Below are positions 4,161 to 59,662 of a stretch of DNA of 64,000 bases, in pieces; the stretch's first letter is position 1, and each line of letters begins with the position of its first letter. This DNA comes from an uncultured Chloroflexia bacterium (GTDB taxonomy: Bacteria; Chloroflexota; Anaerolineae; JAAYZQ01), in assembly GCA_963783445.1 (NCBI GenBank), contig CAWANP010000012.1:466249-530248 (forward strand). The letters are read 5' to 3'. The position numbers and the translations under genes were made by a program. Under the pieces are notes generated by a model. It saw only the letters and a list, made by a program, of their open reading frames with translations, was not told the DNA's origin and searched no databases.

Positions 4161-4212
4161 GTGATGTGTGCGGGCAGGAGCCAGTGATGCTCGACACGGA
4201 AGGAGCAAGACC

Positions 4213-5187
4213 GTGAAGTACAAGGCCTATTCCAAGCTCAGTGGTGTGCCCAATATCATCGTGGACGGGGCGGCCCAGGAGGATACGGTACTGACCTTGA
4301 GCCACTGGCCCGGCAGCGGTTCGCCGGCAGAGTTTCGGGCTGACACCAGCACCGAGATCGTGCTGAACTATCTTGCCACACCGGGCGCCAGAGATCAGTA
4401 TGCGCCCAAGATCCGTGTCGTGTCCAACAACCACTTTGACGAGGATGGTCTGTGCGCGGTCTGGGCCATGCTGAATCCAAAGCAGGCCCTGAAGATGCGA
4501 GATCTGCTGGTGGACGTGGCCAGGGCCGGTGATTTCAGTACCTACCGGCGGCCACAGGCAGCCAAGGTGGTGTTTACCATCCGCAGCTACGCCGACCCTG
4601 ACATCTCGCCCATTTCCGACAAGCTTGTGGATGATGACGGCAGCGGCAGCCGCCGGTATCAGGCCCTCTTGCCGTTGTTGCAGGACTTTATGGAAGACAC
4701 GGACCGGTATGGGCCATTTTGGGACGAGGAATGGTCGGTCATGCTCAAGAGCAAGACGGCCATGGTCATGGGTGAGGTCGAACTGCACGAGGTCCCTCAC
4801 GTGGATCTGGCCGTGGCCGAGTCGCCAGAACCCTTGCACCCCATGGTGCTCTACAACAACACCGAACGTTTGCGGGTGCTGACGGCGCTGCCTGGAGGCT
4901 ATTCCAGTTGCGCTACCGCTACGAGACCTGGGTCCAGTATGCCAGCCGGCCGGTGATGCCTCGCGTGGACCTCGACCCTCTTGCTGCCTCGCCTGCAAGA
5001 GCTGGAACAGGAGCCGGTCCAGTGGACCTTTGATGGCAATTCAGCCATTACCCCAGCTGCTTCGGCCCGTGGGGCCGGATGGTCAGCCAGCCCCCAGCAG
5101 CCTGAACCTGGGGACCCTGCTCGACGAATTGGTGGCCTTCTATGAACGAGAGCAGGACAATCCTGCATTGCAGTGGAATCCATATTA
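4213..5187 (+). CDS. hypothetical protein, first gene of T-box operon; 3' third broken by 2-3 frameshifts
   Basis: GGAAGGAG RBS + GTG 4213; 262-aa intact N-part, C-terminal pieces (…FQLRYRYETWVQYASRPVMPRVDLDPLAA… / …GTLLDELVAFYEREQDNPALQWNPY*) in other frames; no recognisable family. Confidence 0.5.
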
Positions 5188-5217
5188 GACACGAGTGAGA
5201 AGGGACGGGAGAAGGGC

Positions 5218-5940
5218 ATGACCGAGCAGTTGTATCAGACAGATAGCTATCTGCAAGACTTTGATGCCGTGGTGGTGGCGGTGGATGGCCAGGCGGTGGC
5301 TTTGGACCGCACAGCCTTCTACCCCGGTGGAGGCGGCCAGCCCGCTGATGTGGGATCATTGGCTTGGGATGGCGGCTCATCTCAAGTTGTCAAGGTGAAA
5401 AGGCAGGGCCCGGAAGTATGGCATACCCTATCCGGCGAGCTGCCAGGGGAAGGGACGCCAGTGCATGGGCAGTTGGACTGGCAGAGGCGCTACCGGTTGA
5501 TGCGTACCCACACGGCCCTCCACGTGCTGTGTGGCGTCGTCTGGCGCGACTATGGTGCCTCGGTCACTGGTGGGAACATGGAACCCTTCAAGGGCCGCAT
5601 GGATTTTGAGTTCGAGACGATGCGCGAGGAACTGGTGGCCGAGATCGAGGCCAGCGTCAATGCCGAGATAGCCAAGGACCACCCGGTGCGGACTGCTATC
5701 TTGCCCCGCGAGGAGGCATTCGAGATCCCGGATCTGATTCGCACCAAGATCAACCTGTTGCCGCCCCAGATCCAGGAGGTGCGCACCGTAGAGATCGTGG
5801 ACCTCGATCTGCAGGCGGATGGCGGCACCCACGTGGCCAACACCAGCGAGGTGGGGCTGGTGCGCGTGGTGGACTATAAGAGCAAGGGCGCAATCAACAA
5901 GCGGATCTATATTGAGCTGGACGCAGGGGAGAACGAATAG
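5218..5940 (+). CDS. AlaX-M-like aminoacyl-tRNA trans-editing protein (AlaRS editing-domain homolog)
   Basis: Zn-binding motifs of AlaRS editing fold: THTALHVLCGVV (HxxxH) and DGGTHVANTSEVG (CxxxH-like second half); GGGQPAD; RBS GGGAGAAGGGC. Confidence 0.75.
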   Translation: MTEQLYQTDSYLQDFDAVVVAVDGQAVALDRTAFYPGGGGQPADVGSLAWDGGSSQVVKVKRQGPEVWHTLSGELPGEGTPVHGQLDWQRRYRLMRTHTALHVLCGVVWRDYGASVTGGNMEPFKGRMDFEFETMREELVAEIEASVNAEIAKDHPVRTAILPREEAFEIPDLIRTKINLLPPQIQEVRTVEIVDLDLQADGGTHVANTSEVGLVRVVDYKSKGAINKRIYIELDAGENE

Positions 5941-6138: not shown

Positions 6139-9100
6139 ATGTTTGAGCCAGTACCCAATCAAGTGGATTTTGTCAAGCAAGAGCACGAGGTGCTTGACTT
6201 TTGGCAGCGCACGATGCTTTCCGCAAGCTGAGAGAAAAGAACAAGGGAAACGCGACCTTCTCTTTCATAGATCGGCCCGATCACGGCCAACAACCCCATG
6301 GGGGTCCATCACGCCTGGGGCCGAACCTACAAGGATGTGTTCCAGCGCTACAGGGCCATGCTCGGCCTTGACCAGCGCTGGCAGAACGGCTTTGACTGCC
6401 AGGGACTGTGGGTCGAGGTCGAAGTAGAGAAAGCAGATGGGCTTTGAGACCAAGAAGGACATCGAAGCCTATGGCCTGGCCAGCTTTGTCAACCTCTGCA
6501 AGCAGCGCGTACTGGAGTACTCGGCTGTCCAAACCCAGCAGTCGATGCGCCTGGGCTATTGGATGGACTGGAACGACATCGACCAGCTGCGCTACCTCAA
6601 GGCCAAGATGGCGGAGGATCCGACCCAGGTCATCACCGTGGAGGGCCCCCACGGCCCGGTGACGGACACGGTCGAGCAGATTGTTGGGCGGCTGGGTTTG
6701 CCAGAACTGGGCGGCAGCTACTATACGTTCAGCAACGAGAACAACTATAATATCTGGACCGCCTTGAGAAAGTGCCACGACAATGGCTGGATCTACAAAG
6801 GCACGGACGTGATGCCCTGGTGCGCCCGCTGCGGCACCGGCATCAGCCAGCACGAGATCGTGACCGAGGGCTACCAGGAACTGACCCACCCCAGCGTCTT
6901 TCTCGCTTTCCCCTGCGGAAGCGACCAGGCGAGGACCTGCTGGTGTGGACCACCACCCCATGGACCCTGACCAGCAACGTTGGCGCGGCAGTGCATCCTG
7001 AACTGCCCTACGTCCTGGTCGAACAAGGGCCTGCCCTGGAGCAAGGGCCGCGAGGACAGACGCTTCTGGTTGAGCAAAGGCGCCCTGGACAATGCCCTGC
7101 GCGGGGCATTTACCGTTCTGGATGAAAAGCCGGGCGCCGAGCTGGAGGGCTGGACCTACGACGGTCCCTTTGACGAACTGCCTGCCCAGCAGGAGAGCGG
7201 ATCGGTGGCCGCTCACCGGGTTGTTCTCTGGGACGAGGTTGGCGAGGCCGAGGGCACGGGCATCGTCCACATGGCCCCCGGCTGCGGCGCGGAGGACTTT
7301 GAACTGGGTAGGGAGCTTGGTCTGCCCAGCCATCGCGCCGCTGAACGATGGGGGCATCTTTCTGGATGGCTTTGACTGGCTGACCGGACATGAGCGTCCA
7401 CGAGTCAGCCCAGCCCATCTTTGACAACTTGAAGGCCAAAGGGCTTCTCTACCGCCTTCAGGACTATACCCACCGCTATCCGGTCTGCTGGCGTTGCCAC
7501 GAGGAACTGGTCTTCCGCCTGGTGGATGAGTGGTTCATCGGCATGGGCGACCAACTGGAAAAGCCCTACGAGCAGGTGACAGAGGAGGAAAAGGCCACCC
7601 GGCTGCGCTACCAGATCATGGAAGTGGTGCAGGACACACGCTGGATCCCTGCCTTTGGCTTTGAGCGGGAGATGGACTGGCTGCGCAACATGCACGATTG
7701 GATGATCTCCAAGAAGCGCTACTGGGGCCTGGCCCTGCCCATCTGGGAGTGCCACGAGTGCGGTTGGTTCGACGTCATCGGCAGCCAGGAAGAGCTAAAA
7801 GAGCGAGCCGTGGCCGGTTGGGAGGAGTTTGAAGGGCACCCACCCCACCGGCCCTACGTGGATGCCGTCAAGATCCGCTGCGAGGAATGTGGGGCCACGG
7901 TGAGCCGCATCCCCGACGTGGGCAATCCCTGGCTGGATGCCGGCATCGTCGCCTATTCCACCCTGCAGTACCGCACCGATCCGGACTACTGGCGCAAGTG
8001 GTTCCCGGCAGACCTGATCACCGAGAGCTTTCCGGGCCAGTTCCGCAACTGGTTCTACAGTATGCTGGCCATGAGCACCATCATGGAGCGGGAGGCGCCC
8101 TTCCGCGCGGTGCAGACCTATGCCACCCTCTTTGCCGAGGATGGGCGGGCCATGCACAAGAGCTGGGGCAACGCCATCGAGTTCAACGACGCGGCCGACA
8201 CGATGGGCGTGGACGTGATGCGCTGGATGTACTGCGCTCACAAGCCCGAAACCAATCTGCTCTTTGGCTACCACCGCGCTGACGAGACCCGCCGCCGCTT
8301 CCTGATCCCGTTGTGGAACGTCTACTCTTTCTTTGTGACCTATGCCAACCTGGATGGCTGGACACCGGAGGGCGTCCAGGCCACGCTGCAACAGGGACGC
8401 TGTCCGAGCTGGATCGCTGGATGCTGGCCCGGCTGAACCAGGTCGTCGCCCGCGCGACAGAGTACATGGACAACTATGATCCTTACGGGCCACGCTGGTC
8501 GTGGAGCCGCTGCTGGACGATCTGACCAACTGGTACGTGCGCCGCAGCCGCCGTCGCTTCTGGAAGAGCGAGCAGGACGCCGACAAAGACGGGGCCTATG
8601 CCACGCTGTACCACGTCCTGCTGACGCTGACCAAACTACTGGCGCCCATCGTCCCCTTTGTGACCGAGGTGATGTACCAGAACCTGGTCCGTTCCGTGGA
8701 CAAGGGCGCGTGCGAAAGCGTGCACCACTGCGACTGGCCGGAGGCGGATGAGAGGCTGGATGGACCAGGAGCTGCTGGATCGCATGGCCCTGGCCATGCA
8801 GATCGCCGCCCTGGGCCGATCGGCCCGGAGCACATCGGGCGTCAAGCTGCGGCAGCCGCTGGCCCGGGCCCGGGTCTATGCCGGCAAGCGCGCGCCGGAC
8901 CTCGGGGCCCTGGCGGACCTGGTGACCGATGAACTCAATGTCAAGGCCATCGAGTTCGTGGACACAGGAAGCCGACCTGGTCGAGTACGAGATCGGCCTG
9001 CTGCCCAACGTCCTGGGTCCCAAGCACGGCAAGCGCTTTCCCCTCCTGCGCAAAGCCGTGGCGGCGCGGACGCTGGAGCGCTGGCCGCGCGCTTCCAGGC

Positions 9101-9518
9101 AGGCCTCAGCGTGACCCTGGACCTGGGTGACGGTGGGCCGGCCGTGGAGCTGTTGCCGGAAGAGGTGGAGGTCCGGACCCACGGTCGCGAGGGCTATGCT
9201 GTTGCTGAGGAAAAGGGCATCATCGTGGCCGTAGACGTCACCCTGACGCCCGAACTGGCCCGCGAGGGTCTGGCCCGCGACCTGGTGCGCCGCGTCCAGA
9301 CGCTGCGCAAAGAGGCAGACTTGCAGCTCGACGACCGCATCAGTACCTACTATGCCGGCAGACGAACTGAACGCCGTCGTGGCCGAGTGGGCCGGCTATA
9401 TCCAGGCCGAGACCCTCAGCCTGGAACTTGTACCCGGCCCGGTGCCTGATGATCTGGCCCAGCAGGGCGCCTTCGAACTCGGCGGGCATGCGGTAGAGTT
9501 GGGCATCCGGAAAATCTA
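6139..9518 (+). CDS. ileS: isoleucyl-tRNA synthetase, reading frame shattered by >=10 single-base frameshifts (pseudogene or assembly artefact)
   Basis: Collinear IleRS pieces across ORFs 5989-6231, 6437-6970, 6772-7125, 6980-7375, 7390-8436, 8313-8525, 8501-8932, 8748-9449, 8929-9114: HIGH region [17 protein letters not shown], editing [18 protein letters not shown] and [16 protein letters not shown], Zn knuckles CWRCHEE/CHECGW/CEECGAT, KMSKS-type AMHKSWGNA; two indels reconstructed as 1-nt insertions (gatCggccc, aaaGcagatg). Confidence 0.85.
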
Positions 9519-9626
9519 GACGAGTTCCAGCCTTGCTCGGCCTTTGCAGGGCTGGAACCTTCTGGTACTGGCTGGCAGGGGTTTGGACGTAGAGTCCAGG
9601 TCTGTGCCCGCGGTCAGAGTGGTATT

Positions 9627-56848: not shown

Positions 56849-59662
56849 ATGAATGTAGAACTGACCATCAACGGAAAAAAGGTTACAGCCCCCGAGGGCA
56901 GCACCATCCTGGAAGCTGCGCGCCTGGCAGGTATCCAGATCCCTACGCTCTGCCACCATCCTGACCTGACCAACGTGGGCGCCTGCCGCCTGTGCGTCGT
57001 CGCGGTGGAGAGGGCGCGGACGCTGCAAACTGCCTGTACGACGCCTATCTCGGCAGGGATGGTCGTGAACACCGAGAGCGAAGAGGTGCGCGCGACCCGC
57101 AAATTCGTACTGGAGATGCTGCTGACCGACCATCCCAATGACTGCATGACCTGCGAGGTGAACGGCGACTGTGAACTGCAGGACCTGGTCTACGACTATG
57201 GCGTCGAGTGGCCCGAACACAGCGGTCAGCGCCACAGCCTACGAAATCGATTCGGACCCGAATCCTTTTGTGTTCGTCGATCGCAACAAGTGCATCGTTT
57301 GCGGCCGCTGTATCCGGGCCTGCAGCGAGATTCAAAACCGCGATGTCTGGAACTTTGCCCAGCGCGGCTTTGAGACCAAGCTCGTCGCCGGCGCCGACCA
57401 GCTCATGCTCGACGCCCGTTGCGAAAGCTGTGGCCAGTGTGTGGCCTATTGCCCCGTCGGCGCCCTGCACGACAAGATGAGCCTGGGCCTGGGGCGGCCC
57501 AACCAGGTCAGCAAAGTGCGGACGACCTGCTCCTATTGCGGCGTGGGCTGCACCTTTGACCTGAACGTGCGCGACGGCAAGGTCGTGCGCGTTACCAGCT
57601 GCTGAGGATGCGCCGGTCAACGGTTTGTCGCTCTGTGTCAAAGGCCGCTACGGCTACGACTACATACACCACCCCGACCGCCTGACCCGGCCTCTGGTGC
57701 GGGCCAAGTGGCTGGCCGGTGTGCAAGAGAGATTGGCCAGCGGTGAGTGGCGAGTGGCGGATTCCCAATCCCCAACTCCCAATCCTGATGATCTTGTCGA
57801 AACCGACTGGGATACCGCGCTGGACCTGGTAGCCAACCGCTTCGCCGAGGTCAAACAGGAACATGGCAGCGATGCTTTTGCCGTGCTGGCTTCGGCCAAG
57901 TGCACCAACGAGGAGAACTATCTCTTTAACAAGTTCACGCGGCAGATCCTGGCCACCAATACCATCGACCACTGTGCTCGCCTCTGACACAGCGCCACCG
58001 TCGCCGGTCTGGTGACAAGCTTTGGCAGCGGCGCGATGACCAACTCCATCCGCGATATCGCCCAGGAGAGCGAGTGCTTCTTTATCATCGGCAGCAATAC
58101 CACCGAGCAACACCCGGTCATCGGAACCAAGATCCGGCAGGCGGTGCGGTACCGTGGGGCCAAGCTCATCGTGGCCGATCCCCGTCGCATTGATATCGCC
58201 GACTATGCCGACCTGTTCTTGCAGCACAAACCGGGCACCGACATTGCCCTGCTCAACGGCCTGATGCACGTCATCCTCCGTGAAGGTTGGCAGGATGAGG
58301 CATTTATCGCCGAGCGAACCGAGAACTTTGAAGCATTCAGAGCCACCGTTGAGGAATACACTCCCGAGGTGGCCAGCCAGATCTGTGGCGTGCCGGCCAA
58401 AGAGATCGAAAAGGCGGCCAGGATGCTGGCCGAAAACCGGCCCGGTTCCCTATTCTACGCGATGGGTATCACCCAGCACATGGATCGGCGTGGCCAACGT
58501 AATGAGCTGCGCCAACCTGCAGATGCTGCTGGGCAACATGGGGGTGCCAGGGGGAGGCGTGAATCCTCTGCGCGGCCAAAACAACGTCCAGGGCGCCTGC
58601 GACATGGGTGGTCTGCCCAACGTTTACCCCGGCTACCAACCGGTGACCTCCCCGCCTGTCCAGAGAAAATTTGAGAAAGCCTGGGGTGTGCCCTTGTCGA
58701 ACCGGGTCGGGCTGACCGTCACCGAGATGCTTCACGCTGCCGAGGAAGGAGCCGTACGCTGCCTGTACGTCATCGGCGAGAACCCGATGACCAGCGATCC
58801 AGACCTGAATCACGTGCGCCATGCCCTCCAAGAGACCGAGTTTCTGGTGTTGCAGGACATCTTTTTGACCGAAACGGCCCCCTTTGCCGACGTGATTTTC
58901 CCAGCAGCCAGTTTTGCCGAAAAGAACGGTACCTTTACCAACACCGAGCGGCGGGTGCAGTTGGTACGCCGGGCCATCGATCCGCCCGGCGAGGCCCGCT
59001 CGGATTCCTGGATCATCACCGAGCTGGCCCGGCGCCTGCTTGAACTCGGGGCGGCATTGCCTGATCCGGACGCGCCCCACGCTGGTTGGGACTATGCCTC
59101 CACCTCTGACGTGCTGGCCGAGATCAACGCCCTGTCGCCCATCTATGCCGGTATCACCCCCGAGCGGCTGGCCATGGGCGAACAGCTCCAATGGCCTGTG
59201 CCCACTGCCGAGCACCCCGGCACGCCCATTCTGCATGTGGGCAGATTCAGCCGCGGGGTGGGCCGTTTTGCCGCGGTGGATTACGCCGAGGCAGACGAGC
59301 TGCCCGACGACGACTACCCGTTGATGTTGACCACCGGACGCGTGCTCTATCACTGGCACGGCGGCGAGATGACACGCCGCGCCCGTGGTCTGGCGGAGGT
59401 TTATCCCGAGGCGCTGATCGAAATCCATCCCCATGATGCCCACAAAGTGGGGATCGTGGATGGCAATATGATGAAGGTCGCTTCGCGCCGGGGTGAGATC
59501 GTGGCCAAAGCCGAGGTGACCGACCGGGTGGAGCCGGGATTGATCTTCTCCACCTTTCACTTTCCCGAGTCGGCGGCCAACTTCCTGACCAACCCGGCCC
59601 TGGACCCGGTGGCCAAGATCCCCGAATTCAAGGTCTGTGCGGTCAAGGTGGAAGCCGTATAG
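56849..59662 (+). CDS. formate dehydrogenase catalytic (alpha) subunit, NuoG-like N-terminus + Mo-bisPGD domain, selenocysteine (TGA ~57985); 3 frameshifts
   Basis: 2Fe-2S/4Fe-4S N-terminal Cys clusters; [12 protein letters not shown] Mo-domain 4Fe-4S; active-site [18 protein letters not shown] (Sec-His pair of FdhF-type enzymes); pieces in ORFs 56849-57373, 57171-57605, 57625-57987, 58012-58674, 58280-59662. Confidence 0.8.
57988..58045 (+). promoter_or_regulatory. SECIS-like stem-loop downstream of the Sec UGA
   Basis: GCGCC…GUCGCC-GGUCU-GGUGAC…GGCGC; apical GGUCUG matches E. coli fdhF SECIS loop. Confidence 0.5.

Follow-up and report, generated by a model that had tools for sequence, protein, structure and literature searches.

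At positions 6139–9519 (plus strand) of the 64-kb window, the whole stretch of DNA analysed here, lies an isoleucyl-tRNA synthetase gene (ileS) whose reading frame is broken many times over, and next to it is an intact IleRS-like paralog. Taken at face value, the annotation describes the loss of an essential aminoacyl-tRNA synthetase beside an intact paralog, an arrangement that invites a story of functional replacement, and the question is whether the gene is broken in the organism or only in its assembled sequence. The preliminary description left artefact and genuine inactivation open. The comparisons presented here favour an artefact: the 13 frameshifts are very probably consensus errors of a noisy long-read metagenome assembly, the gene being intact in the organism, and the evidence points to the broken ileS being ordinary, with no real biological feature behind it. 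The artefact is something we infer from assembled sequences, not something seen in reads.

Identity of the ileS gene

The gene starts with ATG at 6139 and ends with a stop codon at 9517–9519. Over this region, the plus strand specifies a TIGR00392/MupA-like catalytic core, an Anticodon_1 domain and DUF5915 (E 2e-26), the last being the C-terminal domain of type-2 isoleucyl-tRNA synthetases (IleRS2). With the frameshifts repaired, the predicted protein scores 649.9 bits against the NCBIfam ileS model (TIGR00392), above the curated equivalog cut-off of 621.4 bits (full-length score), while single ORF fragments score below it. The intact 1134-aa ortholog of L001, a syntenic sister genome with ~88% DNA identity, scores 650.9 bits.

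In the repaired gene, the class I HXGH signature is GVHH (6301–6312), a non-canonical A/GXHH form that has been described for IleRS2 and is catalytically competent there (PMC10485003). All 146 relatives that cover this motif have GxHH or AxHH. The KMSKS loop reads AMHKS (8149–8163), in which the second Lys and the Ser are retained and the first Lys and middle Ser replaced, and xMHKS is found in every relative covering the loop (162/162). The CP1 editing domain is represented by TTTPWT (6949–6966) and by a second motif stretch of 19 residues (7253–7309). The earlier view that HIGH, KMSKS and editing motifs were all present is upheld for the editing domain, but the two signatures are non-canonical. 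Score, A/GXHH signature, CP1 motifs and C-terminal domain all agree with IleRS2, and an uninterrupted frame is what the gene lacks; once repaired, it can serve as an ordinary GXHH-type IleRS2 sequence.

The closest known protein is the IleRS2 studied by Brkic et al. 2023 (Nat Commun, PMC10485003; PDB 8c8w, 8c9d, 8c8v, 8c8u and 1ile), and the best PDB matches are the chains of Priestia megaterium IleRS2 (E 2.8e-176) and Thermus thermophilus IleRS. The aligned 8c8w chain likewise has a GXHH-type sequence at the HXGH position, and DUF5915 and the TIGR00392 score after repair add to the likeness. In contrast, P. megaterium IleRS2 retains KMSKS, and the protein encoded here is ~100 aa longer (1134 aa in L001), quite apart from the 13 breaks. 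The mupirocin-resistance paralogs MupA and MupB belong to the same IleRS2 lineage, but the L001 ortholog reaches only 560 and 496 bits against cut-offs of 1900 bits, so it is neither MupA nor MupB. Scans of the window for Rfam families and tRNAs returned nothing, and neither a T-box nor another leader was detected upstream of ileS.

Frameshifts within ileS

Aligned globally at the DNA level with the intact L001 ortholog, the gene showed 24 gap events, and merging compensating near pairs left 13 net frameshifts, or ~1 per 260 bp of the sequence as given, with the pieces of the gene spread over all three plus-strand frames. A codon-usage Viterbi segmentation, independent of the alignment, found 12 of the 13 frame switches, in agreement with the previous estimate of at least ten. 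The first lesion, seen in the alignment and in the ORF frames, is a 1-nt deletion relative to L001 at 6213 (between CAC and GAT), and the second, seen in the alignment, is a 1-nt insertion at 6273 (GAT[C]GGCCC). The others were placed by both alignment and Viterbi segmentation. They comprise further 1-nt insertions at 6434 (AAAG[C]AGATG), 7325, 7389 and 8965; 1-nt deletions at 6904, 8401, 8490 and 9063; a 2-nt deletion at 9360; and two compound events. One of these is a complex indel at 7037–7057, in a variable insertion of the editing domain, with a net change of -23 nt (8 codons fewer than L001, plus a +1 shift), and the other, at 8761–8773, combines two insertions and one deletion within 13 nt (net +1). 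The junctions at 6273 and 6434 had already been correctly recognized as single-base insertions, except that the extra base at 6434, formerly taken as G, is more likely the C, since its removal gives VEKEMGF as in L001.

All lesions in ileS are indels, and the coding information is otherwise fully kept. A translatable product arising through compensating pairs of frameshifts was ruled out, as there are stop codons in every out-of-frame stretch. The sequence around 20 indel sites of the window showed no enrichment of runs of three or more bases, or of the motifs CCWGG, GATC, GGCC, CCGG and GCWGC, which rules out an origin in homopolymers or methylation motifs. Random noise at low depth accounts for this lack of bias better than systematic Nanopore error does.

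Distribution of frameshifts in the window

The other 60.6 kb of the window carry 14–17 frameshifts (~1 per 3.6–4.3 kb). At this rate, about one would be expected in ileS (P = 3e-12 to 3e-11 for the 13 observed), and the excess persists if 25 are assumed outside the gene (P = 3e-9, Poisson). The density in ileS is more than 10-fold that of the remaining window, and the local excess first noticed by comparing ileS with its surroundings is, therefore, real (Poisson P < 1e-9).

Damage is found in both directions from ileS. Upstream, the DUF6687 gene (4168–5184, plus strand) is frameshifted at 4899, 4981 and 5056, 1.1 kb from ileS, and forms the 5' part of a dense patch of 16 errors that extends over ~4.5 kb (~4.9–9.4 kb). 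The intervening AlaX-like gene (5173–5940, plus strand; tRNA-synt_2c and tRNA_SAD domains) is intact. A cluster bounded by ileS was ruled out on the 5' side, because the clean gap of 1.15 kb at AlaX does not outsize the gap of 1.0 kb within ileS itself (7389–8401), and another three frameshifts occur immediately past it. At the 3' end of ileS, the indel density falls sharply. The paralog (9627–12341, plus strand), which lies outside the patch, is an intact ORF of 904 aa, the same length as in L001, and has no frameshift in 2.7 kb, although the ileS rate predicts ~10. This matches the earlier report of an undamaged paralog. Further downstream, 1-nt insertions split lspA (signal peptidase II; 13827–14385, plus strand) at 14125 and affect a rluD-like pseudouridine synthase gene (14482–15408, plus strand) near its 5' end, at 14571. 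The flanking genes had been described as intact, which is accurate for the AlaX-like gene and the paralog but not for DUF6687, lspA and the rluD-like gene. Other frameshifted genes in the window include those for SulP/STAS (~1842), UvrD/PcrA (~40663), Golvesin_C/GHL10 (~47670) and Fer4/CCG (~53035) proteins, fdhA, with three frameshifts, and MFS-like genes.

Conservation and selection

Gene order is shared with L001, where the intact ileS is followed by the 904-aa paralog as in the window. Once the indels are taken out, the window and L001 proteins share 92.7% identity, and the dN/dS between them is 0.060, the lowest value among the real genes compared in the neighbourhood. The 1113 codons of the repaired gene contain no nonsense substitutions. 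Against four outgroups, the amino acid changes specific to the window and to L001 numbered 30 vs 35, 11 vs 46, 15 vs 40 and 9 vs 41, so that ileS in the window lineage shows neither acceleration nor an excess of amino acid changes. The window protein has more states in common with distant outgroups than does its L001 counterpart, and the same asymmetry is present for DUF6687. The dS against L001 is higher for ileS (0.61) than for neighbouring genes (0.12–0.43).

The gene is in a single frame at all 79 of the other genome loci compared, a few being shortened, mostly by contig ends. It is intact in the relatives L163, L164 and L165, the last of which has a contig name (k141) suggestive of short-read assembly, and comparison with these three places it in a conserved housekeeping ileS-lspA gene cluster. 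A 348-aa query fragment of the protein is 70–76% identical even to archaeal copies. Its closest match on genome contigs is L001 (94% aa identity), the best match to ileS on metagenome contigs is 85–88%, and no near-identical independent sequence of the same population was found among these contigs.

Origin of the frameshifts

In the organism, ileS would be an intact housekeeping gene of the ileS-lspA cluster, and its 13 frameshifts, of a single base except for one of 2 bases, would be errors in the consensus of an error-prone long-read metagenome assembly, from which the window presumably derives. Such errors would concentrate in the ~4.5-kb patch, the DUF6687 gene included, where read support may have been locally poor, either because few reads spanned it or because reads of co-occurring relatives confused polishing. 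Consensus error is favoured by the purifying selection on the repaired gene, by the absence of nonsense codons and of acceleration in the window lineage, and by frameshifts in other genes of the window, housekeeping ones among them. It is also favoured by an equivalent cluster in a different gene of L001, where at least 13 one-base indels fall within ~0.9 kb (corresponding to 18089–18954 of the window) of a gene for a solute-binding protein. In the window, the same gene is a single ORF with one continuous SBP_bac_1 match.

L001 comes from the MFD-LR catalogue of Nanopore-only MAGs, assembled with Flye and polished with one round of Medaka, and the authors of that catalogue note that Nanopore-associated errors lower the coding density of lower-coverage MAGs (PMC12313526). 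The contig that carries the window measures 548,502 nt and, as with the L001 contig, is deposited in NCBI and ENA. The window's indels resemble the errors of such MAGs in being almost all single-base, in splitting genes and in being scattered along the contig, as well as in their recurrence in L001 and in related contigs with names of long-read style. Many unrelated genes of the contig are affected, and the orthologs are intact in independent assemblies of relatives. The indels differ from typical Nanopore errors in the lack of homopolymer or methylation-motif bias, and from the errors of Nanopore-only MAGs in being strongly clumped (16 in ~4.5 kb). Three features run counter to an artefact: the sharp drop at the 3' end of ileS, the unbiased indel sites and the raised dS of ileS.

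A chimeric consensus would be a special form of artefact, in which reads of related strains or species were recruited to the conserved ileS and produced a mixed consensus with spurious indels. The gene is indeed the most conserved of its neighbourhood, judging from its dN/dS and its identity to archaeal copies, dS against L001 peaks there, and the states shared with outgroups are more numerous in the window than in L001, as if the consensus had been pulled towards other lineages. However, the error cluster of L001 sits in a less conserved transporter gene, DUF6687 is not highly conserved yet was hit too and has the same outgroup asymmetry, and a 300-nt identity profile has no visible mosaic blocks. 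We regard this origin as possible but unlikely.

Bacterial pseudogenes arise by frameshift decay, for example in reductive genomes, and the destruction of a long ORF by multiple frameshifts is what ileS has in common with them. Were ileS a real pseudogene, its inactivation would have to be very recent, and a different IleRS, with its gene beyond the window, would provide isoleucyl-tRNA. In keeping with this are the 13 breaks, their local density, the undamaged paralog directly downstream, and the coexistence of IleRS1 and IleRS2 in some bacteria (PMC10485003). Against it, neutral decay that collected 13 indels should also leave dozens of substitutions: assuming 5 or more substitutions for each indel, one would expect a minimum of 47 additional nonsynonymous changes and ~2.5 stop codons (~2.5–5 nonsense substitutions at 5–10 per indel). 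Neither the relaxed selection nor the nonsense substitutions of a genuine pseudogene were seen, and there is no surplus of changes specific to the window. Moreover, the dense patch is not specific to ileS, as it covers the 3' part of DUF6687, and the housekeeping genes lspA and uvrD/pcrA are frameshifted as well. As a rule, the gene itself is essential, and its operon context is conserved. Recent inactivation is, on this evidence, highly improbable.

The neighbouring paralog offers little help to a loss of ileS. Both class I signatures, HIGH/GXHH and KMSKS, are absent from it and throughout its conserved family, so it is no substitute for ileS, and no second IleRS was found within the 64 kb. 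The earlier suggestion that a dead ileS would make the paralog more intriguing is weakened accordingly. Genuine loss would combine a housekeeping IleRS2 lost before any substitutions had accrued, an unseen second IleRS and a catalytically dead paralog kept under purifying selection, a conjunction that seems, if anything, harder still to credit. The tandem arrangement of two IleRS-family genes had also raised the idea of reads from similar ileS copies being mis-collapsed, but as applied to the paralog this is next to impossible, since a BLASTn search of the entire window with the ileS region matched only that region itself, the absence of DNA similarity excludes the paralog as a source of such reads, the two proteins share only ~25% aa identity, and the paralog is error-free.

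Consensus error remains the preferred reading, and, as a normal IleRS2 gene would then have been damaged by clumped errors, calls of gene loss or pseudogenes from this contig need read-level checks before they are trusted. Equal caution is due with other long-read MAGs of this kind, among them the GTDB representative L001 with an error cluster of its own.

A search of the protein database returned only ileS matches of less than ~610 aa, a good number of them from very long contigs, but the idea of widespread fragmentation was dropped: the short lengths probably reflect the search itself, since the intact 1134-aa protein of L001 was missed as well. Two of these matches were inspected directly and are truly split genes; on these related contigs, with names in the style of long-read assemblers and one of them labelled '3x', IleRS2 is split into 3–4 pieces beside other split genes.

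Fragmentation of ileS

Between 5900 and 9700, a single class I tRNA synthetase is scattered over all three forward frames. The matches of its fragments to TIGR00392 (ileS), MupA/MupB, Pfam tRNA-synt_1, Anticodon_1 and DUF5915 are collinear, and the gene runs on the + strand from an ATG at 6139 to a stop codon at 9517–9519. Indels were counted against L001, a sister MAG (MFD09964.bin.2.208, Chloroflexia, 1.85-Mb contig) found in a scan of species-representative genomes, which shares 88–92% nucleotide identity with the window across about 16 kb, and 94% amino-acid identity over the longest ileS fragment. There, ileS is a single uninterrupted ORF (1134 aa) and precedes a paralog of 904 aa. Aligned globally as DNA, the window and L001 copies of ileS differ by 24 gap events, which reduce to 13 net frameshifts once compensating pairs a few bases apart are merged (6213, 6273, 6434, 6904, 7037–7057, 7325, 7389, 8401, 8490, 8761–8773, 8965, 9063 and 9360; six net insertions, seven net deletions). 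The changes are of 1 nt, save for a 2-nt deletion and a complex site with an additional 8-codon length difference. A Viterbi segmentation by codon usage, trained on the window's long ORFs and blind to L001, recovered 12 of the 13 frame switches. The agreement of the two methods therefore bears out the preliminary description, which reported at least ten frameshifts, a gene split over at least nine ORFs, and two reconstructed junctions. The remaining 79 genome loci have IleRS2 in a single frame (1117–1126 aa in the related loci L163, L164 and L165), while in two related contigs with names in the style of long-read assemblers, one of them labeled '3x', it lies in 3–4 pieces beside other split genes.

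Consensus errors or gene inactivation

When the window codons were rebuilt in the L001 reading frame, the repaired ileS showed 92.7% amino-acid identity to L001 (dN 0.036, dS 0.61), and its dN/dS of 0.060 is the lowest among the real genes compared. No nonsense substitution relative to L001 occurs in its 1113 codons, and it scores 649.9 bits with TIGR00392 (above the cut-off; intact L001 protein, 650.9). Relative-rate counts with four outgroups gave no acceleration of ileS in the window lineage (window-specific versus L001-specific: 30 and 35 with L165, 11 and 46 with L163, 15 and 40 with L164, 9 and 41 with L002). A ratio of 5–10 substitutions per indel, as is generally known for bacterial pseudogenes, was assumed. 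Since a computed 3.8% of random ileS substitutions produce stop codons and 73% produce replacements, 13 neutral indels would be expected to add 47–95 replacements and 2.5–5 stop codons, and none of this excess is seen in ileS. The preliminary description had offered an assembly problem or real inactivation as the cause; the low dN/dS, the lack of nonsense codons and the unaccelerated lineage make a genuine recent inactivation highly improbable, and the same kind of damage is found in other genes of the window, housekeeping genes included (lspA, uvrD/pcrA, fdhA, transporters). The window's contig (548,502 nt, deposited like that of L001 in NCBI and ENA) would also be in keeping with a long-read MAG. 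The frameshifts are thus very probably a patch of consensus indel errors from long-read assembly, and in themselves they reveal no new biology.

Error clusters are also present in L001, a public MAG and GTDB representative, as shown by its at least 13 one-base insertions within ~0.9 kb (window 18089–18954; region L001 19514–21005, equivalent to window 17541–19020), all within a gene for a solute-binding protein whose window copy is intact (17730–19388, - strand; one continuous SBP_bac_1 match, profile positions 8–306 of 307). The catalogue containing L001 is Nanopore-only (Flye plus a single Medaka round), and its authors note Nanopore-associated errors in MAGs of lower coverage (PMC12313526). 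The two genomes also differ by an indel, a SulP/STAS block (817–2861) that is missing from the syntenic position in L001, where the only match is 88 nt at 1624–1711.

Distribution and possible origin of the frameshifts

Outside ileS, the window has 14–17 frameshifts. Comparison to L001 placed some of them in the genes for DUF6687 (4899, 4981, 5056), lspA (14125) and an rluD-like protein (14571), and at 16512. Split domain architectures revealed others in a SulP transporter (Sulfate_transp/STAS, ~1842), the UvrD/PcrA helicase (between the UvrD N-terminal and UvrD_C halves, ~40663), a Golvesin_C/GHL10 glycosidase-like protein (~47670) and an HdrD-like Fer4/CCG protein (CCG/CCG, ~53035). Overlapping same-strand ORFs indicated two in an MFS-like transporter gene (~43992, ~44282), about three in the formate-dehydrogenase-alpha-like gene (56849–59659; ~57216, ~57596, ~58484), and one or two more. 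The formate-dehydrogenase-alpha-like gene also has an in-frame TGA (57985–57987), in a 16-residue context that corresponds to the usual Sec/Cys position; it probably encodes selenocysteine and is not a lesion.

The density is 3.85 per kb in ileS versus about 0.23–0.28 per kb outside (Poisson P ~3e-11 or less; 3e-9 if 25 outside are assumed), so the much higher indel density first reported for ileS is real, and errors are clumped elsewhere in the window too. A more apt description of the ileS cluster is a patch spanning ~4.9 to 9.4 kb: the DUF6687 frameshifts lie just 1.15 kb 5' of the first one in ileS, which itself includes an error-free gap of 1.0 kb (7389 to 8401). The flanking genes, described earlier as intact, are so for the immediate neighbors (AlaX-like gene, 5173–5940; paralog, 9627–12341) but not for the DUF6687 gene.

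Three features call for an explanation: the abrupt loss of all frameshifts where ileS gives way to the paralog, the absence of homopolymer or methylation-motif bias at the indel sites, and a dS that is highest in ileS among the genes compared. Random noise would be compatible with them if few reads span this stretch and depth is low, as would interference with the consensus of so conserved a gene by reads from co-occurring relatives. Mis-collapse of similar ileS copies, as suggested previously, is excluded for the adjacent paralog, since ileS has no similarity to it at the nucleotide level.

Identity of ileS

By sequence, the ileS product is a type-2 IleRS, and the nearest solved structures are P. 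megaterium IleRS2 (8c8w and related entries; E about 1e-176) and T. thermophilus IleRS. In place of HXGH it has GVHH, which is of the swapped A/GXHH type known from IleRS2; in the study describing that type, the swap left the enzyme active and conferred hyper-resistance to mupirocin (PMC10485003). Its KMSKS loop is AMHKS, so HIGH and KMSKS, initially listed as present, are so solely as variants and not in their canonical forms. All relatives covering these motifs agree (GxHH/AxHH, 146/146; xMHKS, 162/162). The gene order DUF6687, AlaX-like, ileS, paralog, dksA/traR, lspA, rluD recurs in L001 and L163–L165, and the ileS-lspA linkage, classically known from E. coli, marks the window gene as the housekeeping copy. 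Over a 348-aa query fragment, GxHH/xMHKS IleRS2 proteins of Chloroflexota are 70–76% identical to those of MAGs labeled Thorarchaeota, Promethearchaeota, Bathyarchaeota and Poribacteria (L014, L016, L019–L025, L028, L036 and others), which suggests wide horizontal spread of this subtype, or binning contamination.

The IleRS-like paralog

The intact 904-aa ORF following ileS (9627–12341, +) has counterparts in L001 (12238–14952), L163 (6550–9159), L164 (7001–9655) and L165 (5649–8372), and in every context examined it has an intact ileS on one side and dksA/traR-lspA on the other. It shares 25% identity with IleRS, scores 241 bits with the ileS model (cut-off 621) and falls below all NCBIfam cut-offs. 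The family has more than 110 full-length members (about 870–910 aa, 43–87% identity), mostly from Anaerolineae/Chloroflexota, and no publication on it was found. HIGH/GXHH and KMSKS are replaced by unrelated, variable residues in the window, L001 and 113 full-length members, and the editing-site His/Asp is absent from every member, while the zinc-knuckle cysteines are retained. Conservation is high in 199 of 904 columns (≥90%), and dN/dS against L001 is 0.19. In Anaerolineae-type Chloroflexota this is a conserved IleRS-like protein, probably without aminoacylating activity, and not a back-up IleRS. Compared with L001, the window has an insertion of ~1 kb (12346–13430) separating the paralog from dksA/traR; it consists of what is left of an ISKra4-family transposase, truncated and with several frameshifts (NF033572; first fragment, E 1.3e-5).
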